A DNA stretch of 64,000 bases from an uncultured Candidatus Rokubacteria bacterium. Its GTDB lineage: Bacteria; Methylomirabilota; Methylomirabilia; Rokubacteriales; DASRDR01. The DNA is taken from the NCBI GenBank assembly GCA_963805625.1, contig CAWDVE010000010.1, positions 512,001 to 576,000 of the forward strand, in the 5' to 3' direction. A program made the translations under genes and the position numbers. Every line of letters starts with the position of its first letter. The stretch's first letter is position 1. A model generated the notes under the pieces. That model had not been told where the DNA came from. It worked only from the letters and a program-made list of their open reading frames with translations, and did not search any database. Below are positions 9,901 through 25,415 of the stretch, piece after piece.

Positions 9901-10352
9901 GCCACCGGGGCGCCGAAGAGCGCCATGATCCCGTCACCCATGACCTGGTTGACGGTGCCCTCGTAGTGGTGGACCGCCTCCATCATGCGATCGAGCACGG
10001 GGTCGAGAAGCTTGCGCGCCTCCTCCGGATCCCGGTTGGCCAAGAGCTCCATCGAACCCTTCAGATCGGCGAAGAGCACGGTCACCTGTTTACGCTCGCC
10101 CTCCAGGGCACTCCGGGACGTGAGGATTCGCTCAGCGAGGTGCCGGGGAGTGTAGGTGTCGGGCGAAGCGAAGCGCGGCTGGCTCGGAGTCGATCCAGGT
10201 CCACTGACGGGATGCGCGCACTCGAGGCAAAACTTGGCCGTGGGTGGAAGCAAGGTCCCACAACTCGTGCAGAGACGGGCAATCGGCGAAGCGCACTCCA
10301 GGCAGAACTTCGCCTGCGGTGGATTCTCCGTCTGGCAGCGAGGGCATTGCAT
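6993..10352 (-). CDS. Adenylate/guanylate cyclase with double zinc ribbon, AAA ATPase and TPR domains
   Basis: CPRC/CLEC/CTSC/CLEC; ERKQVTVLFADL, GDG; Walker A GEAGVGKS; FEDLHW; TPR-like C-terminus. Confidence 0.95.
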   Translation of the reverse strand: MQCPRCQTENPPQAKFCLECASPIARLCTSCGTLLPPTAKFCLECAHPVSGPGSTPSQPRFASPDTYTPRHLAERILTSRSALEGERKQVTVLFADLKGSMELLANRDPEEARKLLDPVLDRMMEAVHHYEGTVNQVMGDGIMALFGAPVAHEDHAVRACHAAVRMQRRVNLYADEIQREGGTPVQIRVGLNSGEVVVRAIGSDLHMDYTAVGQTTHLAARMEQMAKPGSVLVTGETLNLAEGYVQVRPLGMVTVKGLESPAQVYELTGVVPARSRLQASAARGLTRFVGREGELQQLAQALERAAAGHGQVVAVVGEAGVGKSRLLWEFTRSHRTHGWLVLDSASVSYGKATPYLPVIDLLKAYFRIQERDDSRAVRERVAGKLLTLDRTLEPLLTPLLALLDIPVGDAMWDALDRAQRRHRTLEAVRQLLLRESQIQPLLVLFEDLHWIDSETQAFLDGLIESLPTARILLLVSYRPEYEHAWGRKTYYFQLRIDPLPPQSAGALLDVLLGEDRTLAPVKQMLIERTEGNPFFLEESVRSLVETHVLVGERGAYRMTKAPDAWQIPATAQAILAARIDRLASEEKRLLQAASVIGKDVSFALLQAIADVPEDILRRGLTHLQAAEFLYETTLFPDLEYTFKHALTHEVAYGGLLQDRRRALHARIVDATEALYADRLTEHIEQLAYHAYRGEFWGKAVDYLRQAGAKAFARSANREAVASFEQALAALSHLPATRETLEQGVDVRLALRNSLWPLGRFETGFGHLRDAERQAQELGDQRRLGWIAAYLSEHTRQTGHAADAPEFAEDALTIAEALEDLPLRVAANYYLGTAYFVAGDYRRTDEFFPRILQLLEGDRFRERCGLAGFPSVMSRMFWTLALSERGEFDRGMVEAQEGVRLAEMLDHPYSLICALRGLGRVHGARGNLDHAIRLTERGLALSRERHLPQLSPEVADQLGYLYTLSGRVAEGLGLLEEALAAMEAMAMVQWRSPLLIHLGETYLLASRPENALTLAGRGLTLTRERGHRGSEAWGLRLLGEIALHHDRPDVATAEARYGAAMALASELGMRPLVAHCHLGLGKVYRHTGDEVKAGEHVRAATTMYRELDMDFWLRQAATQA

Positions 10353-10426
10353 GCCGGGCGACTCCAGCCGCGCCAAGGCTAGCCTCGCGGCATGGAGGCG
10401 TCAAGCGCAGCACGCGACCCCAAGAT

Positions 10427-10515
10427 TGGTGCCGGGGGAGGGAGTCGAACCCTCACACGTCTTGCGACGTAGCGGATTTTAAGTCCGCCGCGTCTCCCAG
10501 TTTCGCCACCCCGGC
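10427..10515 (-). tRNA. tRNA-Leu(TAA)
   Basis: GCCGGGG acceptor stem, anticodon arm GCGGA-CTTAAAA-TCCGC, long variable arm, GTTCGACTC, CCA end. Confidence 0.97.
10477..10515. repeat. att repeat (5' half of the intact tRNA-Leu)
   Basis: TTTTAAGTCCGCCGCGTCTCCCAGTTTCGCCACCCCGGC, identical to 23472-23510. Confidence 0.95.
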
Positions 10516-10547
10516 AGTCTGAAGATCCGCGGAGTTACGATACCCCG

Positions 10548-11081
10548 TCACGCCCCCGGCGGACCACTGTGCCCAGAATTGTGCCCAGTACGCTCGGCCA
10601 CTGTGCCCAGGACTGTGTCCTGCGGCGGCGGGGGTACGCTCTCGATCTTCTGAATCAAGCTGTGCACGAAGGCGGCCTGGTCGTTGAACCACTCCGCCGT
10701 CATGTCGGCGATAGTCTCGACAGGGAACCGTCCGTCGTTGTCCTTCTCCCCGAACTTGACCAGCCGGAGCGGGAAGCCCGTGGTCCCCGTCGGGAAAACC
10801 CGTCCATGTGCAAAGGTGTCACGTAAGGCACCCACCCGATGCGGGTCGAACCGATTCGCCTGAGGAACGAGGCCATTGTAGCGTTCTATCGTTTTCCACA
10901 AGCCCCTGTAGTCAGCGAGCGCGTCGTAGGGGACGCGGTCACCCACTTGCAGGCTTCCCCAGTGCCAGTGTGCGCCGGGGCTCGGCTCGATGCGTTCCAT
11001 GGCGGTGCGCAGCGTGGTTTCCAAGAGCTGCAGAAGGGCCACTAGTCGTCCAAGCGCCTGGGTATGCTCGTTCGTGTCCAC
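10548..11081 (-). CDS. Hypothetical protein with HEPN-like R-x4-H motif
   Basis: GTG start just after integrase stop; N-terminal helix ALGRLVALLQLLE; LRDTFAHG motif. Confidence 0.6.
   Translation of the reverse strand: MDTNEHTQALGRLVALLQLLETTLRTAMERIEPSPGAHWHWGSLQVGDRVPYDALADYRGLWKTIERYNGLVPQANRFDPHRVGALRDTFAHGRVFPTGTTGFPLRLVKFGEKDNDGRFPVETIADMTAEWFNDQAAFVHSLIQKIESVPPPPQDTVLGTVAERTGHNSGHSGPPGA
10568..10622. repeat. Integrase arm-type-like direct repeats (TGTGCCCAG, pairs at 12-bp period)
   Basis: Copies at 10568, 10580, 10602 and degenerate 10614; 19 bp (10569-10587) identical to 23319-23337. Confidence 0.75.
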
Positions 11082-11083
11082 AG

Positions 11084-12127
11084 CTATCCGCCGCTGGACA
11101 TCATGTGGGCACGGGCTAGCTTTTCCGCGCCCTCCCGCAGCATCGCCTCGTCCACAATCGCGTACCGGCGGTAGATCGCCTCCGTCTTGTGGCCGACCAT
11201 CTTCATCGCCGTCGAGCGGGGGACGCCGGCCCGCTCCAGGTTGCGCACCGCGGTCCGGCGAAGGTCGTGGGGAATCCGCCCCGGCACGCCGGCGGCCGTG
11301 CACGCGAGCGACCAGGCTTTGCGGAAGTCCCGGATCGGCTTGCCCCGGCGATGGAACACCCAGGGGATGATCCGCTTCCGGGCGCGCTGCCAGCGGTCCG
11401 TTTCGGTGCGCTGCGCGTCCAGGACCTCGTGCAACTCGGGCGTCAGGATGAACGTCCGCCCCTCCTGGTTCTTCGTGGTGCCCGGCTCCAGGCGGATCGT
11501 TCCGGCCTTGACATCGACCTGGCGCCACTGCAGCGGCTGCAGTTCACTCGGCACGCGCCACCCGGTGATGTAGGCGGCGGTCACGAGGCCGCGCAGCTCC
11601 GGCGCGAGCCGGCTCCGGACGGCCTCAAACTGCGGTCGGTCGAAGAAGCCCTGCCGGACGTTGTCCTCCCGGAGCAGGCGAATGCGGGGCGCCCGGTGGA
11701 GCCGCTCGGCATCGAGCGCGAGCGAATAGGCGCGCTTGAGCGCGGCCAACTCGCGGTTGATCGTGCCGTTCGCGGCGCCGGCGGCCTGCCGCGTGGTCGC
11801 GTAGGCCGTGAGATCTGCGCTCGTGACGTGGACGGCGCGCCGCGGGCCGAAAGCCGGCCGCAGATGCCCGAGGCTGATGTCCAGGCGGTCGAGCGAACGC
11901 CGACCGTTCGCCTGGTAGTCGGCCTTGAGGGTATCGAGCAGGTGGTCGACGGTGACCTTGTCGACGCGCGGGATCACGGGCCGGCCCTCGATCGCGGCGC
12001 CCTCTCGGACCTTCAGGAGCCGCTTCGCGTCCCCCTCCTTCGTCGACCCGCTCGACTCGCGGATGATCCGGTCGTGAGCGCGGTACTTGAGCCACCACAC
12101 GTCCCCCCGTCGATACACGCTGCCCAT
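11084..12127 (-). CDS. int: Tyrosine recombinase / phage integrase
   Basis: Catalytic set TGWR, TKN, HDLRRT, VGHKT, RRY; N-terminal arm-binding-like region GSVYRRGDVWWLKY. Confidence 0.95.
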   Translation of the reverse strand: MGSVYRRGDVWWLKYRAHDRIIRESSGSTKEGDAKRLLKVREGAAIEGRPVIPRVDKVTVDHLLDTLKADYQANGRRSLDRLDISLGHLRPAFGPRRAVHVTSADLTAYATTRQAAGAANGTINRELAALKRAYSLALDAERLHRAPRIRLLREDNVRQGFFDRPQFEAVRSRLAPELRGLVTAAYITGWRVPSELQPLQWRQVDVKAGTIRLEPGTTKNQEGRTFILTPELHEVLDAQRTETDRWQRARKRIIPWVFHRRGKPIRDFRKAWSLACTAAGVPGRIPHDLRRTAVRNLERAGVPRSTAMKMVGHKTEAIYRRYAIVDEAMLREGAEKLARAHMMSSGG

Positions 12128-12157
12128 CAGGCTCCCCTCCCCTCGTCGGTCGACGTG

Positions 12158-12865
12158 CTATTCTGCGGTCGCGTAACGTATCCCGCCCAGGAGGACTCCG
12201 CCATGACCGAGGCGCCCGAGATCACGAGCCCCTACGAGCCGCCCTGTATCGAGCGGGTCCTGACCCCGGAGGACCTGGAGCGCGAAGTCCTGTACGCGGG
12301 GTTCGATGCGGTCTCCGCCGACCAGAACTAGTCTCACCGCTCCAGCGCCGCCATGCGCGGCGCGAGGTCCCGCCCCGCCCGCTCCCCTTTGGCCTAGGGT
12401 GCGCGGGACCCAGACGGTCGCGCGATTCGAAAGAGGGTTGACGTGCTGGGACGAGTAGACAAACGCCCCCGTCGCGACCGTGATCGTGATCACCTCCGGC
12501 GACTCCCCCGGCGCCCGCTCACTCGGGAGGAGTATGAGACCTATTCCCATCGGGTCGGTTTCGATGCGCCAGAGGCTCGCGGGGACATCGATCTGTTGCA
12601 GCGTTCCGCTATAGCGAGTCACCCGGGCGCTCTTCGGCGACCCGGGCAGCACGTCGATCCGCCACTGGCTGGTGTTCCTCTGGCGTTCTAGCGGGCCGCT
12701 AACCTTCTCGGCCTTCTTCCCGCTCCCGAGTTCGGTGTGGTAATAGCCGACGGCCGCCGACTCGTTCGATTGACACAGCAACGCCGTGGCCTCGGTCTCG
12801 GCCGCGACCGGCGAGCCGACTGCCAGCACGACCACGACGACAAGGAGCCATGTCACCGAAGTCAT
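12158..12865 (-). CDS. Secreted hypothetical protein (3' end probably aberrant)
   Basis: Signal peptide (VAA-ETE); protein-like to about 12410, then low-quality read-through across the peptide gene. Confidence 0.55.
   Translation of the reverse strand: MTSVTWLLVVVVVLAVGSPVAAETEATALLCQSNESAAVGYYHTELGSGKKAEKVSGPLERQRNTSQWRIDVLPGSPKSARVTRYSGTLQQIDVPASLWRIETDPMGIGLILLPSERAPGESPEVITITVATGAFVYSSQHVNPLSNRATVWVPRTLGQRGAGGAGPRAAHGGAGAVRLVLVGGDRIEPRVQDFALQVLRGQDPLDTGRLVGARDLGRLGHGGVLLGGIRYATAE
12203..12331 (+). CDS. 42-aa peptide resembling a RiPP precursor (YxxP leader)
   Basis: AGGAGGA RBS; MTEAPEITSPYEPPCIERVLTPEDLEREVLYAGFDAVSADQN. Confidence 0.55.
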   Translation: MTEAPEITSPYEPPCIERVLTPEDLEREVLYAGFDAVSADQN

Positions 12866-12937
12866 GTCGATTACCCCCAGGTCTTATCCGGCCAGGCCCA
12901 CGGCTCTGTTCTCGCACCGCGCGGGGGCACCTCTCCG

Positions 12938-13228
12938 TTACGTCGCCGTCGTCCTTCGGACCCGCTGCCAGAGGACCACGCCCGCGAGCGCGACGAGGAG
13001 CAGCATCGCGCTACTCGCCTCCGGCACCGCCGTGGTCTCGGTCGTGAGGCTCGGGGCTGCGGTGATCGTCACGCTCGCGCCCGTCGTTTCCGTCGTGTCC
13101 GTCGGCAGCGTGAGGCACTCGGGGCAGTTCGTCCAGCCATGCTCGGTCAGCCGGTAGGTGTGGCCAGAGGAGCTCGTATACCACTCGCCGACGTGATACC
13201 AGCCGAGGCTCGTCCAATCGATGTACAT
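12938..13228 (-). CDS. Small protein with PEP-CTERM-like sorting tail
   Basis: Thr-rich linker, VPEASS, hydrophobic helix, basic tail WQRVRR. Confidence 0.7.
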   Translation of the reverse strand: MYIDWTSLGWYHVGEWYTSSSGHTYRLTEHGWTNCPECLTLPTDTTETTGASVTITAAPSLTTETTAVPEASSAMLLLVALAGVVLWQRVRRTTAT

Positions 13229-13231
13229 GGC

Positions 13232-13597
13232 TCACTCCAACGGCGTCGTCAGCGGCACGCCGAGGCACGCGGGACACTGGATATAGCCGGCGGCCCGGTT
13301 CCCCGGGAGCGCCCAATACGCCTCCACGGGTGGGATGCGGAAATGCCAGACGCAATCAATCAGGGCGACAAACCACTCGACACAGCACGGCGGACACCCC
13401 TCGGCGAGGCCACACTGCCGGATCGGCTCAGACCCGGGGTCGTTGCGCGCCGGACTCCTCGCCGCGAGGACGATCAGGTCGGCCACGGTGATCAGGCGAG
13501 GCCCGCGATCCTCGACCCGCCGGCGGCGGGGGCGGCGTGGCCACGGCCCCAGCATCGGCGGGCACTCGAAGAGCCGGAGTTGCGCGGTGTCCGTCAT
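13232..13597 (-). CDS. Cys-rich hypothetical protein
   Basis: ATGA overlap with XRE gene; CPPCC, CPAC. Confidence 0.5.
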   Translation of the reverse strand: MTDTAQLRLFECPPMLGPWPRRPRRRRVEDRGPRLITVADLIVLAARSPARNDPGSEPIRQCGLAEGCPPCCVEWFVALIDCVWHFRIPPVEAYWALPGNRAAGYIQCPACLGVPLTTPLE

Positions 13598-13800
13598 TCC
13601 AGCAGCGCCGTCACCGGCACGCCGAGGGCCTTCGCGAGACGCTGGAGCATCCCCACCGTGGGGTCCGAGCGCCCCTCCTCGAGCTTCGTGATGTACTCCC
13701 GACTCACGCCGGCCGCCTTCGCCAGCGCGTAGCGGCTCAGTCCCTTGGCCTTCCGCGTCTTTTTGAGCGTCATGCCGATCTGCCTCGGTGTCGGGCTCAT
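13594..13800 (-). CDS. XRE-family HTH transcriptional regulator
   Basis: LKKTRKAKGLSRYALAKAAGVSREYITKLEEGRSDPT...LAKALGV. Confidence 0.92.
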   Translation of the reverse strand: MSPTPRQIGMTLKKTRKAKGLSRYALAKAAGVSREYITKLEEGRSDPTVGMLQRLAKALGVPVTALLE

Positions 13801-13804
13801 GTTA

Positions 13805-13820
13805 GTCCACTATAGTTGAC
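13805..13820. promoter_or_regulatory. Near-palindromic operator candidate upstream of the XRE gene
   Basis: GTCCACTATAGTTGAC (one mismatched pair) containing -10-like TATAGT 8 bp before the ATG. Confidence 0.55.
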
Positions 13821-14056
13821 GATGCAAGAGGGCTCTCGGTGGTCGCGCGGGGCCGCGGCTCGGGGGGCTCGATCCATCCCGCCCGACCCTACCGCGAGCC
13901 GGTCCGGGGCGCCAGCCGGGGGCCTCGACGGAACCCCGACAGCGCGATACGCTGGGGCCCTCGGGACACGCTCGGAACGGCCGGGGCGGCAGTGTGACGC
14001 CGCGGTATCCGCTCCCCGTGCTGTACGAGCCAATCCGGCCGACAGCGAGGTGTCCC

Positions 14057-14305
14057 ATGACGACACCATTTCCCTCCCCCACAGCTCCCGATCCCCTCCG
14101 GTTCTCGATTCTCGGCACGATCGTCACGTGGGATTCGTTCGGGCGCTGGCTCCGCATCGGGGAGCGCAACTTCTGGGTGGCCCCGAGCGTGGCGGTGGCG
14201 GGCCTGGGTCCCGGCGTCAGGGTCACCGCCAGCGGGCACCAGGAGGACCTGACCGCCCGGTGGATCGTGACCAACGTGAAGCTCGCCGGAGACATCCCAT
14301 GGTGA
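14057..14305 (+). CDS. Small beta-rich hypothetical protein (DUF5666/OB-fold-like)
   Basis: GAGG RBS; ILGTI...LRIG...L.PG.RVTASG pattern. Confidence 0.5.
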   Translation: MTTPFPSPTAPDPLRFSILGTIVTWDSFGRWLRIGERNFWVAPSVAVAGLGPGVRVTASGHQEDLTARWIVTNVKLAGDIPW

Positions 14306-14353
14306 CCGCGTCAGCGCCCCGGTGAACCGCGACCGGCCGGATCCCGCCGCGGC

Positions 14354-14848
14354 TCATGCCGAGTCCGTCGGAGGGTCCGGGAGGGCCGGGGCCGTCGGCC
14401 ACGCGGAAGGCGCGAAAGCGAGGACCTTGACCCCGTCGGCCCGCTCCGTGATGTTCACCACTTCGAGCACCACCGCCGGGGCCGCCGCGAGCCGGGCGAG
14501 GAAGTCCACGGAGACTCGCACCCGGTCACCTGGGCGGATGGCCGACTCCACCAGCCGGTCGAATTGGTCCGTCGGCACGTTCGCCACGCGGAGGGCGGTC
14601 CGCTTCTGGTCGCGGGACATCCCAGCATCGCGGGCCGCGCTGGTACGTGTGCCAACGGGGGACCGACCCCCCGTTGCCGAATTGCCACGGTCTCCACCGC
14701 GCGCCGGAGCGATCGACCGGAGCAGCGCCCCGCACCGCGCGATGGCCCGCGCCTGGATACGCTCGGCCATCTGGCGCAGCGGGAGTGGGGCGCCAATACC
14801 CCAATTCTGCCCGGCGGGCAGAATGACCCACCCCGCCCGGGGGGTCAT
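14354..14848 (-). CDS. Phage-type hypothetical protein
   Basis: ATGA-coupled to upstream gene; AARDAGMSRDQKRTALRVANVP HTH-like segment. Confidence 0.5.
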   Translation of the reverse strand: MTPRAGWVILPAGQNWGIGAPLPLRQMAERIQARAIARCGALLRSIAPARGGDRGNSATGGRSPVGTRTSAARDAGMSRDQKRTALRVANVPTDQFDRLVESAIRPGDRVRVSVDFLARLAAAPAVVLEVVNITERADGVKVLAFAPSAWPTAPALPDPPTDSA

Positions 14849-15231
14849 GCCGGGACCCCGTGTTCGAGGGCCGCCGGACGTGCGGACCCGTCAGAACTCG
14901 CGTCCTCACGGGGGTCCTGCAGGCTCCGCGGCCGCCTGGGGGCGAGGCGACCCGGGGCGGCCGCCCGTTTCAGCCCCCAGCGGAACCGGCCCACGGGAAT
15001 GGTGTAGAACCGGCCCGAGCAGGCCCCCCCGGGGAACCGGGTCTCCCGCGCCGCCGGAATGCCGAGCCGCGCGAGCTTGCGCCACGTGACCGGCGAGGCC
15101 GACCAGAGGTGGACCTGGTCGTCCGCGCGGTCCCAGCGGATCGTGGTTTCTTGCTCGGCGCGGGTGGCGCGATACGCCGCCGAGGCCGCGGCGGGTTGAC
15201 GACGACGCGGACGCAGGGATAGAGTCGGCAT
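14845..15231 (-). CDS. Phage-type hypothetical protein
   Basis: GGAG RBS; EQETTIRWD motif, protein-like composition. Confidence 0.55.
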   Translation of the reverse strand: MPTLSLRPRRRQPAAASAAYRATRAEQETTIRWDRADDQVHLWSASPVTWRKLARLGIPAARETRFPGGACSGRFYTIPVGRFRWGLKRAAAPGRLAPRRPRSLQDPREDASSDGSARPAALEHGVPA

Positions 15232-15253
15232 GGTCTCCAGGCGCTCCTGTTCG

Positions 15254-15288
15254 ACGGCCCCGCCGGAGGCTGAATCCGGCGGGGCCGT
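15254..15288. terminator. Strong hairpin after the virion-gene module
   Basis: 14-bp perfect stem ACGGCCCCGCCGGA / TCCGGCGGGGCCGT, 7-nt loop; no clear U tract. Confidence 0.6.
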
Positions 15289-15301
15289 GTTCGTGGTGGC
15301 C

Positions 15302-16150
15302 CTAGTAGCGGAAGTCCCCGCGTCCCGAATACGTGCTGGCGCCGACGTTCCCGTACCGCGAGTAGACGAACGGGCTGGCGGCTGCGCTGGCCCCGCTCAA
15401 CAGCGTCGAGCCGACCCCGAGATAGCCCGCCGTCCGCACCCCACCCGCCTGAAATCCATAAAGATTCGCCTGCGAGAGATCCGCGGCGGATCGGGAGAGT
15501 CCGCCGAATCGCGCGAACGCCGCTTCCCCTATGAGCGATCCCGCCCGGAGTGCGCCTTCACTGCGCGCATACGCTGAGCCGGCCCGCATGCCGGCCACGT
15601 CCACCGCCACTTCGTAATCGTGCACCGCGAGCTCCTGCCCGACGGTGTCCGCATTTTCCATGAGCACCATCAGGGGCGACCCCGTGGTATCGACACCCGC
15701 CTTCCCGATCGCGGCGCGCACCTCGCTTTGCGTCCGGTCGTAGTTGCGACGAATGGCCGCCTCTTGGATCTTCCCGGCCGCTTCCCGCGCGAGGGCCTGT
15801 TGCTCGCTGAGGGTGGCCTGCGCCTCAGCCAACGACAGCGCGCCCATGGCTTGTCGCTCGAGGAGTTTGCCTTGCAGCTCGGCCATTCGGGCTTGATAGG
15901 CCGCTTGCTGACGCGCGAGTGCCGCGTTGTACTCCAGGGCCGCCGCTTGCTGCTGGGAGGCCTGGTAGGTCCCGTAGGCCGAGACGCCCGCCGCGACCAC
16001 GGCCGCCACCGCCGCAATGGCCGCAAAGGCCGCCGGCGAGAAGTGGCCCACCTCGGCCTCGACTCGCCAGTTGGGATCGACGGCCTCGCCGCAGAGTCGG
16101 CTGAGACGGGCGTCGAAGGACTCCGGACATCCGGGACGGGCTCGACTCAT
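15302..16150 (-). CDS. Podovirus-type internal virion / DNA ejection (pilot) protein
   Basis: GAGGAGG RBS; hydrophobic AAVAAVVAAGVSAYG, QQQAAALEYNA coiled coil, AGVDTTGSPL motif, Gly-rich hydrophobic C-terminus. Confidence 0.7.
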   Translation of the reverse strand: MSRARPGCPESFDARLSRLCGEAVDPNWRVEAEVGHFSPAAFAAIAAVAAVVAAGVSAYGTYQASQQQAAALEYNAALARQQAAYQARMAELQGKLLERQAMGALSLAEAQATLSEQQALAREAAGKIQEAAIRRNYDRTQSEVRAAIGKAGVDTTGSPLMVLMENADTVGQELAVHDYEVAVDVAGMRAGSAYARSEGALRAGSLIGEAAFARFGGLSRSAADLSQANLYGFQAGGVRTAGYLGVGSTLLSGASAAASPFVYSRYGNVGASTYSGRGDFRY

Positions 16151-16160
16151 CGGGGCCTCC

Positions 16161-16478
16161 TCACTCGTCCAGCAGGGTCGTCTTGCGGCGACGCGGGCGG
16201 ACGAGGAGTCCCCGCGTCTTGTCGGTCCCGGGCAGGGCGCCGGCCTTGTCGCCCGGCGGAATCGGTCGGGTGGCCGGTGGCACCCGCGGCCCCGGGCCGG
16301 CCACGGGCACGTACGTCACGGTGGGACCCGTGCGCGGCCGCACCGAGAGCACCTGGAACCCGCCCTGACCCGGCTCGCCCGTCTTGACCTGCGGCCCCGC
16401 GGTCGCCGTCGTCACCGAATTTTTCGGCGGGGTGTAGTAGGGCACCGGCGTCGGCCGCGGGTAACTCGGGTGGCCCAT
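16161..16478 (-). CDS. Small Pro-rich virion-associated-like protein
   Basis: Translationally coupled; basic C-terminus RRRKTTLL. Confidence 0.5.
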   Translation of the reverse strand: MGHPSYPRPTPVPYYTPPKNSVTTATAGPQVKTGEPGQGGFQVLSVRPRTGPTVTYVPVAGPGPRVPPATRPIPPGDKAGALPGTDKTRGLLVRPRRRKTTLLDE

Positions 16479-17203
16479 CAGCGGGCTCGCCGGCCATGCT
16501 GCCGCGCCTGCATATACTCCTCGCGGAACCGGGGCTCGTACTTCGCGATCAACTGGGACGCCTCGGGATCGTGCCCGAGCAACGCGCCGAGTCGCGCCAG
16601 TTCCATGATGACCTGCGGGTGATTGCCCGCGCGCGTCCGGTCAAACTCCTCGCGCAACTCGCCCGGACGGCCCCCGCGGCGCTGATCCAACACCTCGAGC
16701 GCCGCCTTCGCTTGCGCCATCATCCGCGGATAGTGCGCCCCCCAGTGGCTTTGCAAGCGCTCCGCCGCCACCTCGCGACTCGGGATCGATCGCCCCTCGG
16801 CCACCGTAGGCTTCGGCTGACTGGCGTCCAGGATCCAGTTGACGACCGGGTTCGCCTCGGACTCTGACAGGTTGAACGCGCGACACGCGGCCGTCGCGAT
16901 CGAGCGATCCACCGCCGTGAACGTCTCCTCCGTCCGGCCCGGCGGCATCGCGATCTCGTAGTCCAGGTTCGGCGCGACCGTCGCCCCGCTCGCGGCGGCC
17001 GCCGTCCCGTGGACGGTCTCGTACAAGAGTGCCATTTCGCGCAGCGCCGTCGGGTCCCCCCGATGAAACGGATGCGCGAGATCCCCGCGAATCTCCGCAA
17101 TCCGGACCTCCGCCGCGGCGCGATCGGGCGGGCCACTCGGCGCCGGCTCGGGACTGGGGGCGGGACTCGGACTCGGGACGGTCGGGTCGAGGGGCTCAGG
17201 CAT
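16478..17203 (-). CDS. Capsid scaffolding-like protein
   Basis: LQSHWGAHY..MMAQAKAAL and AGNHPQVIMELARLG motifs; RIAEIRGDLAHPFH motif. Confidence 0.65.
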   Translation of the reverse strand: MPEPLDPTVPSPSPAPSPEPAPSGPPDRAAAEVRIAEIRGDLAHPFHRGDPTALREMALLYETVHGTAAAASGATVAPNLDYEIAMPPGRTEETFTAVDRSIATAACRAFNLSESEANPVVNWILDASQPKPTVAEGRSIPSREVAAERLQSHWGAHYPRMMAQAKAALEVLDQRRGGRPGELREEFDRTRAGNHPQVIMELARLGALLGHDPEASQLIAKYEPRFREEYMQARQHGRRAR

Positions 17204-17945
17204 CCGGGTCTCCTTCCGGGTCGCCGCCGAGGGGCCGGCGCGCCGCCGGGCCGGTCGGGGGGGCCGGGGGCACGAGCTCGACGCCCGCCCCCCGCACCGT
17301 CATCGCATAGTCAATGCGCGCGCACAGCTCATCCAGCGCCCGGAGATCGTTCTGCACTTGCACCGGGACCGGCTCCGATTCCTCCACCGCCGTCTTGATC
17401 GCGTTCACCCGGCAGCCGTGCGGCATGCCGCCCGTCACACACTGATGCACGTCGCGGTGCGTGAGCGCCGCAATCTGCGACGGCACCCGCTCGAGGAGCG
17501 TGATCGTCGACTGATCCTTCGCGTCCCGCGCGCGCACCGCGCTGGCCAGCCGCGCCTGCAGCGACCGACAGTCTCGAACCAAATGCGAGCCGCCGCCCAA
17601 GATCAACTCCCACTTCAGGACCTCCCCCTGGATCTCCAGCCGCTGCAGCCGGTCCAGCCGGGACGTCACCGCCGGCACCAGCGGCCGCAACCGCGCCAAA
17701 CACGCGGCCGCGCGCTCCACGTAGGGCGCGAGACTGTCGCGGAGCGCCTGCCCGGCGGCGTCGGCCGCCTGCTCGGGCGCCCGCGCCCGCGCTTCGAGCC
17801 GGGCCAACGCATCCTCGGACGGCGGCGCCTCGGGCTCGATCCTGACCTTCGGCGGTCGGCCCCGCGGGCGCTTCGACGGCTCGGGCGGGGGGATCGTGTC
17901 GCGCGCGGCCTGTTGGACTTCGGTGCGGACCTTCGTCATCGGCAT
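17196..17945 (-). CDS. Hypothetical helical protein with AT-hook-like motif
   Basis: GAGGAGG RBS; KRPRGRPPK. Confidence 0.6.
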   Translation of the reverse strand: MPMTKVRTEVQQAARDTIPPPEPSKRPRGRPPKVRIEPEAPPSEDALARLEARARAPEQAADAAGQALRDSLAPYVERAAACLARLRPLVPAVTSRLDRLQRLEIQGEVLKWELILGGGSHLVRDCRSLQARLASAVRARDAKDQSTITLLERVPSQIAALTHRDVHQCVTGGMPHGCRVNAIKTAVEESEPVPVQVQNDLRALDELCARIDYAMTVRGAGVELVPPAPPTGPAARRPLGGDPEGDPDA

Positions 17946-17955
17946 CGGGACCTCC

Positions 17956-18216
17956 TCACAGCCCGTAGGCGGTGCGGACGTTCGCCGCGCTATAGCTCTT
18001 CCACGACAGCTCGCCGGCGAGCCCGCCCTTGGCATTCGATTCTTCCGTCGCCACCGTATTCGGCGCATCCGCTGGGTCGGGGTCGTGCACCAAAAACACC
18101 CCAGCGGTCGCGTCACTCGTCGCCGTCGGCACGGCCAAAATCACGCTGAGGCGCCGCCCACTGCTCATCAGCTGGCGGCGAATGTCCAGGAGGTCGGCAT
18201 AGGTCACCGCAGCCAT
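17956..18216 (-). CDS. Hypothetical protein
   Basis: AAAGGAG RBS, coupled to upstream ORF. Confidence 0.6.
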   Translation of the reverse strand: MAAVTYADLLDIRRQLMSSGRRLSVILAVPTATSDATAGVFLVHDPDPADAPNTVATEESNAKGGLAGELSWKSYSAANVRTAYGL

Positions 18217-18515
18217 CAGTTCGCTCCTTTCGGATCGGAGAGGAGGATCGCGCCCTCGCCCAACAACGTCGGACGGCGCGCGGGCGGGGGCGAGATCGGG
18301 ATCGGGGGTGGGGCACTCCCCGGGGCGGGCGCGGGGCGTCGGCGCCGTCGCCGCCGGGACGGGACGCCCGTGGCGACATACACCGCCTCCTCGAGGCCGT
18401 CCTGCACGTGCACGCCCGCCCGGCGGTACGTCATGCCGTGCCAGGCCACGACGGCGCCCCCGGCGCCCGGCAGGCGGGTGAGCACGCGCGTCAGGGACTC
18501 GTCGTAGAGCACCAT
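18216..18515 (-). CDS. Hypothetical protein
   Basis: Tightly packed in operon; Arg/Pro-rich C-terminal half. Confidence 0.5.
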   Translation of the reverse strand: MVLYDESLTRVLTRLPGAGGAVVAWHGMTYRRAGVHVQDGLEEAVYVATGVPSRRRRRRRPAPAPGSAPPPIPISPPPARRPTLLGEGAILLSDPKGAN

Positions 18516-18516
18516 G

Positions 18517-18942
18517 TCAGGCCGACTGCAGCTCCGCCGCCAGCGCCTGCACCGCCTTGTCGCGCGACGTCGCCAACTTCTGCTGCAGCCGCCCCACCTG
18601 CCCCTCCAGCGTCGCCACCTCGGCCTGCCGCTGCTGGATCCGCTGCTCGAGCCCGGCGAGCTCCGCCTCCCGGGTCCCCACGCGCTCCGCGTGCGCCGCC
18701 CGGCTCGCCTCCCACTCCCGCTCGACCTGCCGCATCTCGTTCGCCTTCGCCGTCGTCCACGCCGGCACCTGCGCCGCCAGCCGGGTCACCTGCGCGCTGA
18801 GGGTGTGACGCTGCTCGCGCATCTGCTCCGCCACCGTGGCCTCCGCCTGCGCCCCCTGCTGGAGCGCCGTCAGCGCGGCGTCGATCGCGGCGAACTCCGT
18901 GAACTTCGATTCCAGGTCAACTCGGTCTGTCATTGGTCGCAC
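18517..18942 (-). CDS. Coiled-coil hypothetical protein
   Basis: Heptad-rich A/E/Q/R sequence; AGGAG RBS. Confidence 0.65.
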   Translation of the reverse strand: MRPMTDRVDLESKFTEFAAIDAALTALQQGAQAEATVAEQMREQRHTLSAQVTRLAAQVPAWTTAKANEMRQVEREWEASRAAHAERVGTREAELAGLEQRIQQRQAEVATLEGQVGRLQQKLATSRDKAVQALAAELQSA

Positions 18943-19218
18943 TCCTGTTCAGGGTGAAGGGTGCACGGCGCTTGGGGACATGGGGCGATGGGGACGGTCC
19001 CGGACGGGGTCATGACGGCCCGTTCGGGCCGACAGTTTCGGGGGGGGTGGGGTGGCAGGGTGTTTCGCTGCGTGCCCGGCGCCCCCCGCTCCCCGGCGGC
19101 CGGCGATGGACGGGGGCTCATGGGCCGAGCCAGTAGTCCAAGAGGATCTTGACCCACACGCCGAGCGCGATCGCCCAGGCGGCTCGCGTCAACCACCGGC
19201 CATCCAAGCGGGGGCGGA

Positions 19219-20448
19219 TCATCGCGGCGCCTCCCGGTGCGCCAACACGAATTGCTCGAGGTCGTCGACCAGGATGTGAATGAGCTTCTCGCGCGAGGTG
19301 CCCTGCCCGCCCGGAAGCCGCACCGCCGGCAGCAGGCCGCGCGACACGAAGTCACGGACCTTCCCGTACCCCACGCCGAGGTAGACGCCGGCCTCCTTGA
19401 GCGTGTAGAGCCGCTTCAGGCGCGCGAGGGAGAGGGTCGCGGCGTCGAAGCTCACCCCCAGGAGGGCGCGGAGGGTCTTCTGGTTGGTGATCCGGTTCGT
19501 CCGGATCAGGGTGGCGGCCTGGTCGTCCAGGGCGGCGGCCTGGGTCGCGTCCGCCTGGCGGCCCTCGGCCTCGAGGTCGGCCCGGGTGCGCGGGTCGGTT
19601 TCGATGACACAGGAGCGCCGGGGCCGGCCGTACTCGTCGTCCTCCCCGAGCCGCACCCGCACCCGTCGGAGTCGGAGGGGAGCCGGCTTGGCGTCGTCCC
19701 GGACCTTCAGGGTCGTCAGGAGCAAGTCGGCGATCCCGAGTTCCCCATTGTCGGCCGTGACCTCGAGGTAGAACACGCCATCGGAGTTGCCCCGGAAGGC
19801 CGAGGAGCCCCGTTCGCGCTTCTTTTTCGTCTCCCCGTCTTGCCACCCGGCATGATGGGCGAGCACCGCCCCGGCGTCGGGCACCACGGTGAGCAATCGG
19901 CGGACGACGCGGAGATACGCGGCGACATCCTCGGAGCGATCCTCGGAGCCGACCATCGACGCCCGGAGCGTGTCGATCAGGAGCAGCACCACGGGCGGCC
20001 CCCCGGCCGTCGCGAGCTCGGCGACGAGGGTGCGGAGGCTGTCGCGGAGGGCGCACTCCCCCGCCGAGGGGGTTTCCTGCCCCTCGCGGTCGACCCGGGG
20101 CGAGATCGGCTCGCCGGCGCGGAGCACATAGAGGTGCCGCACGTCCCGGGACGTGACCTGGAGGGCGGCGAGCCGGAGCCCGAGGGCATCCCCCTCGAAG
20201 CTGACATACGCCACCGTGCCGGCCTGCGCGGGGCGGCCATGCCACTCCTTCTCCCCGCCCGCCACGGCCGCGGCTAGGTCGAGCAAGACGAACGTCTTTC
20301 CGGCCCCGGACTCGGAGACCAGCACACTGACCCCGCGCTGCCACGCGAACTCGGCCACGAGACTGATCGGCGGGGGGTCGGTGAGGAGGTCGAGGGCGGG
20401 CCGGAAGCGGGCGACGTCGATCGAGTCCGTCACGGCGTCGAGGTTCAC
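19219..20448 (-). CDS. RepA/AAA_25-type (SF4-like) helicase with C-terminal excisionase-like HTH
   Basis: Walker A SESGAGKT, Walker B LLLIDT, AHHAG, RGSSAFRGNSD; tail LYTLKEAGVYLGV...LPAVRL. Confidence 0.85.
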   Translation of the reverse strand: MNLDAVTDSIDVARFRPALDLLTDPPPISLVAEFAWQRGVSVLVSESGAGKTFVLLDLAAAVAGGEKEWHGRPAQAGTVAYVSFEGDALGLRLAALQVTSRDVRHLYVLRAGEPISPRVDREGQETPSAGECALRDSLRTLVAELATAGGPPVVLLLIDTLRASMVGSEDRSEDVAAYLRVVRRLLTVVPDAGAVLAHHAGWQDGETKKKRERGSSAFRGNSDGVFYLEVTADNGELGIADLLLTTLKVRDDAKPAPLRLRRVRVRLGEDDEYGRPRRSCVIETDPRTRADLEAEGRQADATQAAALDDQAATLIRTNRITNQKTLRALLGVSFDAATLSLARLKRLYTLKEAGVYLGVGYGKVRDFVSRGLLPAVRLPGGQGTSREKLIHILVDDLEQFVLAHREAPR

Positions 20449-21311
20449 CGGACGGACTCCCGGGCGGCCCGGAGATCCCGCCAGTCGCGCCCGCGACAAT
20501 GGCCGTGATGACACACGAAGTCGAACGCCCCGCTGGCGCGGATGAGGATCGCGGCCCCGCCGGGGCCGGTCGTATGGACGTCGGCCCAGGGGCAGCGGGC
20601 CAATTCGAGCAGGTAGCCGTCCGCCCAGCGCTTGAGGGGGCCGACGGTACGGAGCCCCCAGGCCTGGGCCTTGGCCAGCAACGTGCCGCCGAGATCATCC
20701 GGGGGCGGCCTTGACGGGCCGGCATACGACGATCGGCCAGGCGGGGGAGTCAAGAGCCGGACCACCTGATCGAGGATCGCTTGCCGGGGCTGCACCGCCG
20801 AGGGCGTCCCGGCCCACGTGTGCCCGGTCACGACCATGACCTTCGCCCGGTCGTAGAGCTCGAGGTGCGCTTCGGGATGCGTGATGGGATGGGGGAGCGT
20901 GCCGTGCACGAAGAGATGTAACCCCGTGCCGCTCACGCTGATCTCGGTCCAGGACTGCACGTGCGCCACCAGCCGCGCGGCCCCGGGCAGGAGCTGTGCC
21001 CCGTCGAGCACCCCGTCCAGGTCGAAGCAGGTGATCTGCGCCTCAGCGGTGAGCACCGCGCCGATCCCGATCAATGGGCCGATGACCGGATTCGGATCGC
21101 GGTGGGGACCTGTCAGGAGCGCGTAGGCGTCCACGGCCTCCCCGAACGTGCCCCACGTCTCGGGGTCCGTGCTCGAGGCCCGTCGGGTCGGATCGCTGAT
21201 TCGATAGGGGACCTTCTGAGGCTTGCCCGCCCGCGGCTCGGCCCGCGAGAGCACCCAGGGTTGGGCCCGCAGGACGGCGGGGATCGCGTCGGGGATCAGC
21301 TCACGCCACAC
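20445..21311 (-). CDS. Primase-polymerase (AEP, NrS-1-like N-terminal domain) with Zn-binding-like C-terminus
   Basis: KVPY, ASSTDPETWGTF, CFDLD, TEISVSGTGLH, ELYD; CPW..VH and CHHGHC. Confidence 0.85.
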   Translation of the reverse strand: MWRELIPDAIPAVLRAQPWVLSRAEPRAGKPQKVPYRISDPTRRASSTDPETWGTFGEAVDAYALLTGPHRDPNPVIGPLIGIGAVLTAEAQITCFDLDGVLDGAQLLPGAARLVAHVQSWTEISVSGTGLHLFVHGTLPHPITHPEAHLELYDRAKVMVVTGHTWAGTPSAVQPRQAILDQVVRLLTPPPGRSSYAGPSRPPPDDLGGTLLAKAQAWGLRTVGPLKRWADGYLLELARCPWADVHTTGPGGAAILIRASGAFDFVCHHGHCRGRDWRDLRAARESVR

Positions 21312-21359
21312 GGGCGACCTCGGGGAAGAGGGTCGAGAGCAGGAGGTTCATGGCGGGGG

Positions 21360-21692
21360 TCATCGCCGGCCCGCCTCGTCGTCGAAGGCCGCCGGCGTGA
21401 CCCAGACGTCCCCGCGGGGCCGGGCCTCGGCCCACGCCAGGGCACAGGGCTCGCACAGCTTCACCGGCTCGAGCGGCGAGGATCGGCCCCAGATGATCGC
21501 GGTGCCGCAGTCGGCGCACGCGCCCGTCTGCATGGTGGGGATGAGGGTCCGCGCCTCGGCCTGACGGGCGGGCGACTCGTGTGGGAGCTGCGCCATCGCG
21601 GCGTCCCACTCCGCACGTCGGGCACAGACGATCACAGTGGGCCGCCGCGTGGCGATGTGTTCGACGGTCCGCCGCCATTCGTCCCGGGTCAC
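21360..21692 (-). CDS. Hypothetical protein with two CxxC motifs
   Basis: GTGA coupling; CADC, CEPC. Confidence 0.55.
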   Translation of the reverse strand: MTRDEWRRTVEHIATRRPTVIVCARRAEWDAAMAQLPHESPARQAEARTLIPTMQTGACADCGTAIIWGRSSPLEPVKLCEPCALAWAEARPRGDVWVTPAAFDDEAGRR

Positions 21693-22063
21693 CCGGCCAT
21701 CTCCGCGAACTCGTCCGCCTCCGCAATGAGCGCGCGGAGTTTCTTGGGCGAATGGCCGCCGGTGTTCTGGAGGAGCCAGACGAGGTAGTGGCTGAGCGGT
21801 TGCCACCACCAGTGCGTCCACCGCGGATCGCGCCCGAGGCAGTCGTTCATCTTGCAGAGCACGACGATCGGCGAGAAGCCGTCCTCGGTGATGGTGTCCG
21901 GGTGCCAGACGATGCCGGCGATCTTGACGTCGGTGATCCACTCGCCACACCCGGCGCAGCGGAGGCGCGGATAGTTGTGGCCGCGGCGGTGCCGGACGCC
22001 GAAACTCGGCGTGGTCGGCCCTCCGGGTCCGTAGAGGTCGTCGGACGAACGCGGGGTCGTCAC
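21689..22063 (-). CDS. Hypothetical protein (CxxC)
   Basis: GTGA coupling; CAGC. Confidence 0.55.
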   Translation of the reverse strand: MTTPRSSDDLYGPGGPTTPSFGVRHRRGHNYPRLRCAGCGEWITDVKIAGIVWHPDTITEDGFSPIVVLCKMNDCLGRDPRWTHWWWQPLSHYLVWLLQNTGGHSPKKLRALIAEADEFAEMAG

Positions 22064-22272
22064 GCCGCCCTCCGGCGCTGCCCGTCAGCATTCTGCCCGC
22101 CGGGCAGATTGGGTCGGGCGGCCTGCTCGAGGGCGAGGACGGCCGCATCGAGCCGGAGTGAGCGTCGTCGAGTGAAGGCCCCGTCGAGGACCCGCTCGGC
22201 CCGCGCGAGCGCGAACCCGAGGAGCAGCTGCGCCGGCACGGGGGGTAGCCGGCGGGCCACGAGTGCGGACAT
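22060..22272 (-). CDS. Hypothetical protein
   Basis: Fills operon slot, coupled to downstream ORF. Confidence 0.45.
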   Translation of the reverse strand: MSALVARRLPPVPAQLLLGFALARAERVLDGAFTRRRSLRLDAAVLALEQAARPNLPGGQNADGQRRRAA

Positions 22273-22293
22273 GGCGCGCGGGTCCGGCTCCGG

Positions 22294-22497
22294 CTACTCG
22301 CGCCCCTTGGCGCGGGCGAGGAACGCCAGAAGGCTCGCCTGTGGCACCCGCGGCATGCGGGGTCCGATGTGGATGGTCTCCAGCTCCCCCCGGCTGATGA
22401 GCCGATCGAGAGTCGCGTCCGAGACCTTGAGGAGCCTCATGACCTCGGCGCGTCGGTAGAGCTGCTCGGCGCGCCGCTCGTCGACCTCTATGAGCAT
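22294..22497 (-). CDS. Excisionase / AlpA-like HTH_17 DNA-binding protein
   Basis: GGAGG RBS; LYRRAEVMRLLKVSDATLDRLISRGELETIHIG. Confidence 0.88.
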   Translation of the reverse strand: MLIEVDERRAEQLYRRAEVMRLLKVSDATLDRLISRGELETIHIGPRMPRVPQASLLAFLARAKGRE

Positions 22498-22563
22498 CCG
22501 GGCCTCCCGAGGCCACTTGGGCCTGCGAGGGGCACGTTACTGGAGGGAGACGCGCCGGTCTAA

Positions 22564-22595
22564 CGAGTAACCTTTTGGGGCGAAAAGGTTACTCG
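22564..22595. promoter_or_regulatory. Perfect 13-bp inverted repeat upstream of excisionase operon
   Basis: CGAGTAACCTTTT-ggggcg-AAAAGGTTACTCG. Confidence 0.7.
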
Positions 22596-22601
22596 GCCGA
22601 A

Positions 22602-23192
22602 TCAAGGCGGCGGGGGCACCTCGATGAGTCCGACGTCCCGCAACCATTCCGATTGCCACTCATAGTCCGTGACGCCCGCCGCTGTGAGCCGCTCACGGGT
22701 GTGGCGGAGGATGCGGTTGAGCGGCTTTCCGGGCGTGGGTCGGCGGGTCTGGCGGGAGGCATCGATCCAGGTCGCGTGTGTCATCCACGACGCCAGACGG
22801 GTCGTGAGGTCTCGCGCCTCCTCGTCCTCGGCCAGGAGCCACAACTCCCGGAGGAGCGGAGGGAGATCACGCCGTAGCTGGCGGACGCGGATCTCCAGGT
22901 CCTGGTAGATCATGGCGCGCTGGCTTCTCACCTGCTCCTGGTAGTGCTCGACCAAGCCCGCACACAGCGCCGCGCACAGGCGGTCCTCGTCGATCCCTTG
23001 GACCCGGGCGGCCTCGAGGTGGTCCTCACACTCGCGTTCTCGATCAGGGTGAAACGGCAGGAGGGCCCTGAGCGCCCGCGCGCGATCCGCTCGCGTCTTC
23101 CACCGGCCTTGGAGGGACAGGACCGAGGCGGGATCGGGGAGTTGCGCCTGGGGATATCGCGCCTGCGAGCGGCGGACTCGCTTCTTCGCCAT
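22602..23192 (-). CDS. Hypothetical protein (first gene inside the element)
   Basis: GAGGGGAG RBS, 196-aa helical ORF. Confidence 0.6.
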   Translation of the reverse strand: MAKKRVRRSQARYPQAQLPDPASVLSLQGRWKTRADRARALRALLPFHPDRERECEDHLEAARVQGIDEDRLCAALCAGLVEHYQEQVRSQRAMIYQDLEIRVRQLRRDLPPLLRELWLLAEDEEARDLTTRLASWMTHATWIDASRQTRRPTPGKPLNRILRHTRERLTAAGVTDYEWQSEWLRDVGLIEVPPPP

Positions 23193-23318
23193 GGCTCCCC
23201 CTCGTGGAGCGCCTCAAGGGACGGGGCCGGTGGGCGAGGGCGGTGAGGAGCCGCCCCGTCGACGCCAGTAGCGAGCTGGCGCCTACGCCCACACGAGTCA
23301 GTCTACGCGATCACCGCC

Positions 23319-23375
23319 GTGCCCAGAATTGTGCCCACGGCGACGTCACGACCCGACACAATCCAGCACAATCCG
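23319..23375. repeat. att arm: arm-type pair plus 10-bp-period repeats
   Basis: GTGCCCAGAATTGTGCCCA then CACGACCCG/CACAATCCA/CACAATCCG at 23347/23357/23367. Confidence 0.7.
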
Positions 23376-23471
23376 ACGAATTGGAGCAGGCACAGAGACC
23401 GAGCGGGCCGATCGCGAATCGCCCGTCAGGATGCGGGGATCGTGACGCGCGACGCGTGCCGACGGGGTCGC

Positions 23472-23510
23472 TTTTAAGTCCGCCGCGTCTCCCAGTTTCG
23501 CCACCCCGGC
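23472..23510 (-). repeat. att repeat: 5' half of tRNA-Leu(TAA) ending at the anticodon loop
   Basis: 39 bp identical to 10477-10515; no T arm follows. Confidence 0.95.
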
Positions 23511-23726
23511 TGGTCGACGAGCGAGAAGTTACGATACACTGCGAGGTTCCCGCGGCGCCACTTTGCCCGGACCTTTGCCCACGATCACGCACTGGGGGGC
23601 TAGTCCATGGCCTGTCGCTGGACCGCTCGTCTCCTTCAGCGCTGATACACGATCCCTGTGAGCACGCCCTGGTTCAGGTCCGAGTCGACCCCATGCTGGT
23701 CCTTCTCGAGGAGGCTCACGCTCCGA

Positions 23727-23993
23727 TCATGCGGAGCCCCCGGAGGCGTTCGTTTGATCCACCAGCTGCCCAATCAGCCCGCGGCGCTCCGCGCAGTCCG
23801 CCCGATCCGGGCACGCGAACACGAGGGTGCAGTCCTCCACGTGCAGCATGAGTGTCGGCGCGCCCGCGGTCGCAGCGACGAGTTGGCGCAGTCGCGCGAT
23901 CCACGTTTGGTCAGGGTGTTCGGAGAGCATCAAGCGCATGTTCTCGGTGTCCGGAACGCGAACCGACTCACCCACGATACGAATCTGTTGCAT
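23727..23993 (-). CDS. Hypothetical protein
   Basis: AGGAGG RBS, 88 aa. Confidence 0.45.
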   Translation of the reverse strand: MQQIRIVGESVRVPDTENMRLMLSEHPDQTWIARLRQLVAATAGAPTLMLHVEDCTLVFACPDRADCAERRGLIGQLVDQTNASGGSA

Positions 23994-24403
23994 CGCGCCC
24001 CTCCTGCCTCCGACCGACGTGCCATACTGGCGGTTCGGGTGCCGGTGACGGTGATCGGTCGAACGCTCCCTGGCCGTGAGACCTACGCGAACTGTCTAGC
24101 GAAGTCCTCGGTCCGGATGACCGGGACACGTATGCGGTGATGTCCAGCTGCACGCGCTTCACGCATCGAGCCGACGCCCCAACGAATGTCGTCAGGGCGA
24201 TCTGCTGCCGCTCTCCTGGATCGAAGGACCACCCACTCTGGCAACATCCGAGCTGACCCATGGAATTCAACGCCGCGACGTGTGTCAGCGCGAGGACGAA
24301 GCTGCTCCCTCGCCTTCGCCTCGTGCCGCGGGGCCAATATTAGGCCGCTACCCGTGAACGACACAGAATTGCCCAGAGGCGGCGATCCCTCAGCGGCTTC
24401 CGG

Positions 24404-24646
24404 CTATCGTGGAGCGGCTTCCTGGAGCGCGAGCAGGGCGGTCGACAGCTCGGCGGCCGTCCAGTCTAGGTCCTCGATAGGGACCCGCAGGGTTGCCCGT
24501 ATCGAGATGGGCCCCGTGCGGGCGAGGCGCTCGAGCATCTCCTGGGCATCCCGGACCGCATTGAAGGCCCGGCGCAGGCGATCCACGGCCATGGCGTTCG
24601 GAGAGAGTGGCAGCGGCGCTGTCCCCGGGCGAACGAAGCGGGGCAC
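24404..24646 (-). CDS. Hypothetical protein
   Basis: GAGG RBS, amphipathic helical pattern. Confidence 0.4.
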   Translation of the reverse strand: MPRFVRPGTAPLPLSPNAMAVDRLRRAFNAVRDAQEMLERLARTGPISIRATLRVPIEDLDWTAAELSTALLALQEAAPR

Positions 24647-25007
24647 GTCAGCGACCGCCTCGGCGGTTGCGATTCAGGATCACGGCGGCGGGGTACTTGA
24701 TTCGTAACGTCGTCTTCTTTGCCATGGCCGAGGATACCATGGGCAGAGTGTTCATGCAGGGCCGCTTCAGAACGCCAAATGGTTGCCACTGCGGTGAGCC
24801 AGGGAGTCGCGCTGCCACGAGACGCGGTCAGTCGCTCGTGGGTGCACGCCGACGAGGCCCGCGCCGCCTGCGGGCTTGCCCGCTCCCGCCGTCCGGGATC
24901 GACTGGCCGCGAGCCGGCTCGTTCCTCATGAACCGATCGGTCGGGGCGGACGCCATGCCGGCGGCGTGTTTGGGGTCGAGAGTGGCGCAGGCCGACCCGT
25001 CCGGCGG

Positions 25008-25352: not shown

Positions 25353-25415
25353 GACACTCCTCCTTCCCAGCAGCGCCATCGCCGGCACGCCGAGTCGTTT
25401 GGCAGCTTCCGGAGC

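Follow-up and report, generated by a model that had tools for sequence, protein, structure and literature searches.

Elements that insert into tRNA genes usually bring the 3' part of the gene with them, a rule usually explained by the need to retain the host promoter. What happens, then, when it is the 5' part that has been duplicated, and from where is the rebuilt gene transcribed? This question is raised by a 64,000-nucleotide stretch (hereafter the window) of contig CAWDVE010000010.1 from an uncultured Candidatus Rokubacteria bacterium (assembly GCA_963805625.1), where a sequence-only reading had proposed that an element duplicated the 5' half of tRNA-Leu(TAA). A 5'-side tRNA layout was reportedly described earlier by Zhao and Williams in 2002. 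Our answer is that a displaced 5' half and the intact tRNA-Leu(TAA) enclose a 13.0-kb phage-satellite-like element. We hold with considerable confidence that the insertion was most likely the work of the element's own tyrosine integrase, with the crossover in the anticodon loop, and that the attachment site (attP) of the element carried the tRNA 5' half together with a likely replacement promoter.

The repeat is confirmed: a 39-bp copy of the 5' half lies 13 kb upstream of the intact tRNA-Leu(TAA). It is on the same strand as the gene, 12,995 bp apart from it, and 100% identical to tRNA positions 1-39, so that the repeat runs from the tRNA 5' end to exactly the last base of the 7-nt loop (CTTAAAA), as the sequence-only reading had it. 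The base right after this identity block differs between the two copies. An exact 39-mer has a chance expectation of ~2e-16 in a 7.27-Mb genome, and ARAGORN called only one intact Leu(TAA) gene among 63 tRNAs in the assembly. The end of the identity block at the 7-nt loop places the crossover there, no further 3' than the loop, which agrees with the earlier placement and points to an anticodon-loop (A-site) integrase. Both the host and the displaced half (attL) read CGTCG at +8 to +12 past the loop, the mirror of GACG on the 5' side; this suggests core-site symmetry, which was not seen at the junction in genome G008.

The element boundaries are fixed by an empty site in genome G013, of the same genus, which is colinear with the window on both sides. 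We searched 41 genomes with tRNA-Leu (the window's own included), and 36 gave a match. In G013, the host flank on the Gly side is 95.8% identical over 4,266 bp, and a match to window positions 24777-23472 (87% over 1,315 bp) runs straight into a complete tRNA-Leu that is 100% identical to the window's; ~700 bp beyond this gene, the sequence matches window positions 6969-6308 (93%). The empty site gives the same boundaries as had been proposed, with the half copy upstream and the intact gene ~13 kb downstream, and it shows that the intact tRNA-Leu was cut off from the DNA that had preceded it. A search of 14 congeners gave short pieces of the element and never the whole of it. The cyclase/AAA/TPR gene directly 3' of tRNA-Leu is missing at the corresponding place in G013, and its 5' region matches many sites in the genome.

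The integrase scores far below the Xer cut-offs and above that of PF00589. Its open reading frame (ORF) is whole and ends 568 nt ahead of tRNA-Leu, and by motif position R191, K219, H287, R290, H313 and Y322 are its putative catalytic residues; no solved structure matched it by sequence. In this integrase family the 3' end of the gene points at the att site. In the insertion that we propose, CTTAAAA would be the 7-bp overlap, with the anticodon stem on either side as core sites, and an attP carrying the tRNA 5' half would put the element upstream of the tRNA because the overlap sets the direction. Pairs of TGGGCACA repeats stand at both element ends in one orientation, as would be expected for the arm sites of a single attP. 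The rebuilt tRNA-Leu would be transcribed from the arm, between arm repeats and core, using either TATCGT or GTGACG-18-GATCTT, possibly aided by read-through from the integrase operon.

How often do relatives of this integrase behave in the same way? Searching with it gave 109 matches at E<=1e-40 in 66 of 201 genomes of the class. We examined 94 of these (15 mostly weaker or partial matches were left out) and 28 further loci, making 122, or 117 after 5 duplicates were removed. A tRNA within 700 nt past the integrase 3' end gave each locus its polarity: 29 face a tRNA 5' end (5'-type, the window included), 53 face a 3' end (3'-type), 3 are arranged in some other way and 32 lack a tRNA in this range. 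When 17 of the 5'-type loci were tested for a displaced 5' half, 6 showed one (of Leu(TAG), Pro(GGG), Asp(GTC), Met(CAT), Val(TAC) and Val(CAC)), in each case ending 0-2 nt past the loop. The idea that homologues would also flank 5' tRNA fragments is borne out at these six loci and not at the other 11.

The closest homologue of the integrase, L033, is 73% identical to it over 275 columns and sits at Leu(TAG) as a 3' type; the next closest is 5'-type at Asp. Both polarities are seen at each of Leu(TAA), Leu(TAG), Asp, Met, Val(CAC), Arg(TCT), Arg(CCT) and Ser(TGA); one tRNA-Leu in G003 is flanked by both halves, and the sister integrases L056 and L057 sit at tRNA-Leu(TAA) with opposite polarity. 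A 72-row tree requires 16 polarity changes, at least 10 of them forced by starred branches (shuffled labels require 22), and a 22-row tree requires 5 and rejects a single clade for the 7 fragment-confirmed 5' types (approximately unbiased test, p=1.5e-49). Polarity is therefore likely labile in this family, with many switches, and the target tRNA appears to have changed repeatedly as well. Several points pull the other way. The polarity labels rest on geometry; the 72-row tree used rows of at least 190 aa and a quick search only; and bootstrap support in the 22-row tree is unsettled. Moreover, 11 of the 17 5'-type loci tested lack a displaced half (5 of them had <10 kb of contig and 6 had 27-38 kb), while all three 3'-type controls showed their fragment, so some 5' labels may be wrong, or the elements may be larger or decayed. 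In two genomes the tRNA that turns its 5' end towards a family integrase (L041, L124) is tRNA-Sec(TCA), and no displaced half was found.

The rebuilt tRNA-Leu is likely driven by an element-borne promoter, and more generally 5'-type attP arms may often hold a sigma-70-like promoter in a slot that is left without one in 3'-type arms. On the integrase strand, we scanned the 80 nt that precede the tRNA and found a sigma-70 match of >=8/12 in the arms of 12/29 5'-type and 0/53 3'-type loci, and such a match or an extended -10 in 16/29 and 1/53 (shuffle means 1.4 and 2.6), although related loci are not independent, so Fisher p values overstate these differences. Within the genus, TATCGT at -20 to -23 of tRNA-Leu is common to the window, the empty-site genome, G002, G007 and G009. 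Of 12 loci, 11 have TAnnnT at 5-30 nt ahead of Leu(TAA) (per-locus chance 0.10-0.34), where the upstream DNA is largely unrelated and most loci have no matching integrase gene just upstream. Weighing against an arm promoter at this locus, the window's own match is weak (7/12); a strict promoter scan of 10200-27500 gave three sites in total, that of tRNA-Gly among them, and none before tRNA-Leu or the half copy; and 13/29 5'-type arms, among them the window's, lack both an 8/12 match and an extended -10.

The main rival to an arm promoter accepts these boundaries and denies the arm a working promoter: tRNA-Leu would be made only by read-through from the integrase operon, and its supply would follow transcription of the element. 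The weak promoter match suits this view, as do the assigned element ORFs, nearly all of which are co-directional with tRNA-Leu, and the candidate ORF that continues through the arm and stops 32 nt before the gene. No terminator-like site was found between the integrase and tRNA-Leu in the scan of 10200-27500, and the demand for reading UUA is tiny (261 TTA codons, or 0.15% of Leu codons, in 242 of 4,133 roughly called gene-like ORFs). However, read-through does not account for the TATCGT shared with four other genomes, nor for a TAnnnT that recurs downstream of largely unrelated DNA, mostly with no matching integrase at hand, and we consider it unlikely as the sole source of tRNA-Leu. We rejected a bldA-like feedback loop on the integrase, which has no TTA codon. 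Behind the half copy, the same scan found no terminator-like site, and its region folds no better than shuffles (z=0.73), so we claim no small-RNA role for it.

A motif, SYAAST, is found in arms of both polarities (17/29 5'-type, 25/53 3'-type) and is therefore more likely an accessory-protein site than a promoter; presumably the protein is IHF-like. We also considered TATCGTAA as a pure promoter motif and rejected it, since its STAA part belongs to a motif common to both polarities. Three 3'-type loci at tRNA-Asp (L130, L134 and L135) have a hairpin between A and T runs in the slot that holds a promoter match in 5' types, resembling a replacement terminator.

The DNA that the insertion displaced was described in the sequence-only reading as the original upstream DNA of the gene. 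It was indeed displaced, but it looks element-derived itself: an arm-like repeat pair and the same TATCGTAACT stand outside attL, and both precede the intact tRNA-Leu in G013. This DNA is likely what an older element of this type left at its end, in which case the site entered would already have been an element end, and the insertion reads as swapping one element end for another rather than as losing a native operon promoter. Because the displaced DNA has this appearance, tRNA-Leu was likely already outside its ancestral Gly-Cys-Leu operon.

Comparison across genomes suggests how it left. In six more distant relatives (L014, L015, L017, L018, L025 and L028), the Cys-Leu spacer is 12-42 nt with Gly just upstream, whereas in the window's genus it is ~480 bp or more wherever both genes are seen in tandem. 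Displaced 5' halves also occur in the genus: a near-perfect Leu half 77 nt after Cys in G003, a decayed Leu half 36 nt after Cys and another further on in G011, a Leu half 4 kb upstream in G008, and a Cys half 3.7 kb upstream of Cys in G013. The window itself has a possible decayed Leu half after tRNA-Cys, with a score reached by 4/1000 shuffles over the first 150 nt and by 35/300 over the whole spacer. Given these halves and long spacers, set against the compact arrangement of distant relatives, the operon was likely taken apart by serial 5'-type insertions. The Gly-Cys spacer has features of its own: an int-alpA RNA motif (RF02996) at 26549-26616(-), with 43.1 bits (cut-off 35.8), and TGGCAAC repeats just after tRNA-Gly, like the remnant end of a 3'-type element.

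We lean, somewhat tentatively, towards a broader account that joins these parts. The integrase family would be polarity-labile, with at least 10 flips between the 3' and 5' sides of anticodon loops across many tRNA species. What made flips to the 5' side viable would be a sigma-70 promoter, built in around the accessory-protein site at the same place in attP. The Gly-Cys-Leu operon of one genus would have been broken up by one 5'-type insertion after another, leaving the only tRNA that reads UUA dependent on promoters from mobile elements.

Two other explanations of the locus survive less well. The element might have brought a whole tRNA-Leu, with the host gene truncated by a separate event such as a deletion or illegitimate recombination. 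Phages often carry tRNAs, and the 11 loci without a visible displaced half could be read in this way. However, the host gene reached on going 3' from the intact tRNA is the one found there in G013, whose tRNA-Leu is identical in sequence, and the break coincides exactly with the end of the loop, as it does in six other family members at other tRNAs; the empty site has largely refuted this explanation already, and we think it very improbable. We give as little credence to a misassembly at the 39-bp repeat or to an ordinary 3'-type element with its fragment elsewhere: the assembly has 6.3% contamination and a separate contig carries a 92% 3'-side tRNA-Leu(TAA) fragment (C11:21807-21856, positions 33-82), but the repeat is shorter than a read, G013 is colinear with the sequence on either side, the arm-like repeats at the two junctions point inward, 5' halves also lie upstream of Leu(TAA) in G003, G008 and G011, and no 3' duplicate, which the sequence-only reading had named as a sign of a different element, was found downstream on the window's 2.2-Mb contig. 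The C11 fragment may be a remnant of a 3'-type element or contamination.

The features of the locus are collected in Table 1. Apart from those assigned there, most element ORFs have no family. The helicase-like and excisionase-like domains that share one frame could be a natural fusion or the outcome of a deletion.

Table 1. Features of the locus, in window coordinates; roles of att sites, arms and promoters are predicted.
Feature	Position	Strand	Remarks
Zinc ribbon + adenylate/guanylate cyclase + AAA + TPR gene	6993-10376	-	directly 3' of tRNA-Leu
Intact tRNA-Leu(TAA)	10427-10515	-	ARAGORN; 5' half probably from attP, 3' half from host (attR)
attR copy of 39-bp identity block	10477-10515	-	anticodon loop CTTAAAA at 10477-10483, putative 7-bp overlap
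Candidate element-borne promoter GTGACG-18-GATCTT (7/12)	10522-10551	-	slot where relatives have TTGAC-17-TAnnnT; overlaps SYAAST motif
Alternative -10, TATCGT	10537-10542	-	21 nt upstream of tRNA-Leu
Candidate ORF, ~177 codons	10548-11081	-	between integrase and tRNA, through arm repeats; no PHROG match
Two pairs of arm-type-like repeats (TGGGCACA), attR side	10563-10621	-	repeat family D2; putative function
Tyrosine integrase, 347 aa, uninterrupted	11084-12127	-	PF00589 1.7e-16; phrog_1 4.3e-42; points at tRNA-Leu 5' end
Small protein	12938-13228	-	weak PEP-CTERM-like tail, below cut-offs
Internal-virion-protein-like ORF	15302-16150	-	phrog_418 4.7e-15
ORF, weakly protease-family-like	16478-17203	-	phrog_458 6e-4
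AAA_25 helicase-like protein with in-frame C-terminal HTH_17 (excisionase-like)	19219-20514	-	domain search
Primase(-polymerase)-like protein	20445-21311	-	phrog_13901 6.5e-27; phrog_1829 1.3e-23
196-aa ORF, first long element ORF behind attL	22602-23192	-	no family match; co-directional with displaced upstream DNA
Arm-type-like repeat pair, attL side	23313-23337	-	D2, 92% to reference; same orientation as attR pairs
attL: displaced 5' half of tRNA-Leu, positions 1-39	23472-23510	-	100% copy
Likely end of older 5'-type element, outside 13-kb element	23511-23581	-	arm-like repeats 23557-23581; TATCGT 23531-23536
Possible decayed Leu 5' half, weak	25613-25642	-	49 nt after tRNA-Cys, where ancestral gene lay
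tRNA-Cys(GCA)	25692-25767	-	ARAGORN; arm-like repeats and TAGAAT also in upstream DNA
tRNA-Gly(GCC)	27279-27353	-	ARAGORN
TTGACC-17-TAGAAT promoter match of tRNA-Gly	27366-27394	-	likely ancestral Gly-Cys-Leu operon promoter

Other tRNA fragments occur in the same assembly (G000). There are six tRNA-Asp(GTC) 5' halves, at C16:7879, 43349, 48171 and 68356 (L169-L172), C16:579709 and C22:52785; the intact gene is at C16:77971, and the first four halves form a tandem series in the 70 kb upstream of it. Each half has TTGACC upstream and a hairpin, a T-run and GGGCATAG repeats downstream, and each junction could yield a short half-tRNA transcript. No family integrase was found in the 70-kb tandem stretch, which looks like an array of integrase-less 5'-type elements. 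At C10:330942 (L173), a tRNA-Arg(CCT) 5' half with a 4-nt gap stands behind a promoter-like site, GGTGCTAGAATT, 3.3 kb upstream of the intact gene at C10:334252, which itself has arm-like repeats and TTGACA upstream. 3' halves of the same tRNA lie downstream at C10:340772 and 353847, giving both polarities at one tRNA in one genome. More generally, 3' tRNA fragments are abundant: Lys(CTT), for example, has 15, on C2, C7 and C20, and Glu(CTC) also has many. To judge from these sequences, there is heavy traffic of tRNA-targeting elements in this genome.

The locus is one well-supported example with an empty site, and the lability of the family matters more. A third of its tRNA-adjacent members break the 3' rule, and promoter matches of >=8/12 appear in the arm only where the rule is broken. 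This suggests a frequent mobile-element origin for tRNA promoters in this lineage. Sister pairs of opposite polarity, such as L056 and L057, are natural matched pairs for asking how an integrase changes its target and direction, and they also bear on whether a promoter is the price of reversal.

How does the element compare with known systems? Phage-inducible chromosomal islands (PICIs) and other phage satellites combine an integrase with a primase-replication module in 10-20 kb and lack a full phage gene set. The element resembles them in its predicted content: ~13 kb long, it has an integrase, a primase, a helicase, an excisionase-like HTH and virion-like proteins, and no full phage gene set was found. 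It differs in that no AlpA, terminase small subunit or major capsid protein was matched in PHROG, Pfam or NCBIfam among the ORFs scanned, and no helper was identified. As for the regulator (AlpA or Stl/Str) and packaging-interference traits of PICIs, just the excisionase-like HTH and the virion-protein-like ORF were seen.

Among systems that use the 5' side of tRNA genes, the pTN3-like archaeal integrases are described in the available part of PMC8371274: they use the 5' half of a tRNA gene as attB (that of tRNA-Leu in the case of pTN3), and it is the integrase promoter that drives the rebuilt tRNA, an arrangement seldom seen in bacteria. Our locus likewise has the 5' half of a tRNA-Leu gene as attB, and expression from an element promoter is a candidate here. 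It is unlike pTN3, where int is split on integration with att inside it, in that int is whole and 568 nt from the tRNA, and its candidate promoter lies in the att arm rather than being that of the integrase. Recombination at the 5' side is considerably less frequent according to the accessible text of PMC6563490, which cites Zhao and Williams 2002, and the sections of PMC12884075 and PMC9897764 available to us contain nothing on polarity. In titles and the opening lines of abstracts, we found no description of a polarity-switching tRNA integrase family, although Williams 2002, Mantri and Williams 2004, Zhao and Williams 2002, the TIGER paper or the Islander/TIGER data files may hold one.

The closest counterparts are the 5'-fragment islands of Islander (Hudson, Lau and Williams, PMC4383910), which make up 159 of 3,919 islands (4%) in the part of that paper available to us, a part with nothing on promoters or polarity switching. 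The sequence-only reading was right that the polarity is the minority one, but with a class of this size already catalogued it overstated the surprise. Like those islands, the locus has an intact tRNA, a co-oriented 5' fragment upstream, an integrase between them and use of the A site; its 12,995 bp fall within Islander's 2-200 kb, and a tyrosine integrase that is not Xer lies inside the interval, so at the level of the locus we see no difference. It is a new example of a rare, already catalogued 5'-type layout. What the analysis adds is the likely prior exit of tRNA-Leu from the Gly-Cys-Leu operon and the likely polarity lability of the integrase family, in which the 5' class accounts for 29 of 85 tRNA-adjacent loci, compared with 4% of the Islander calls.

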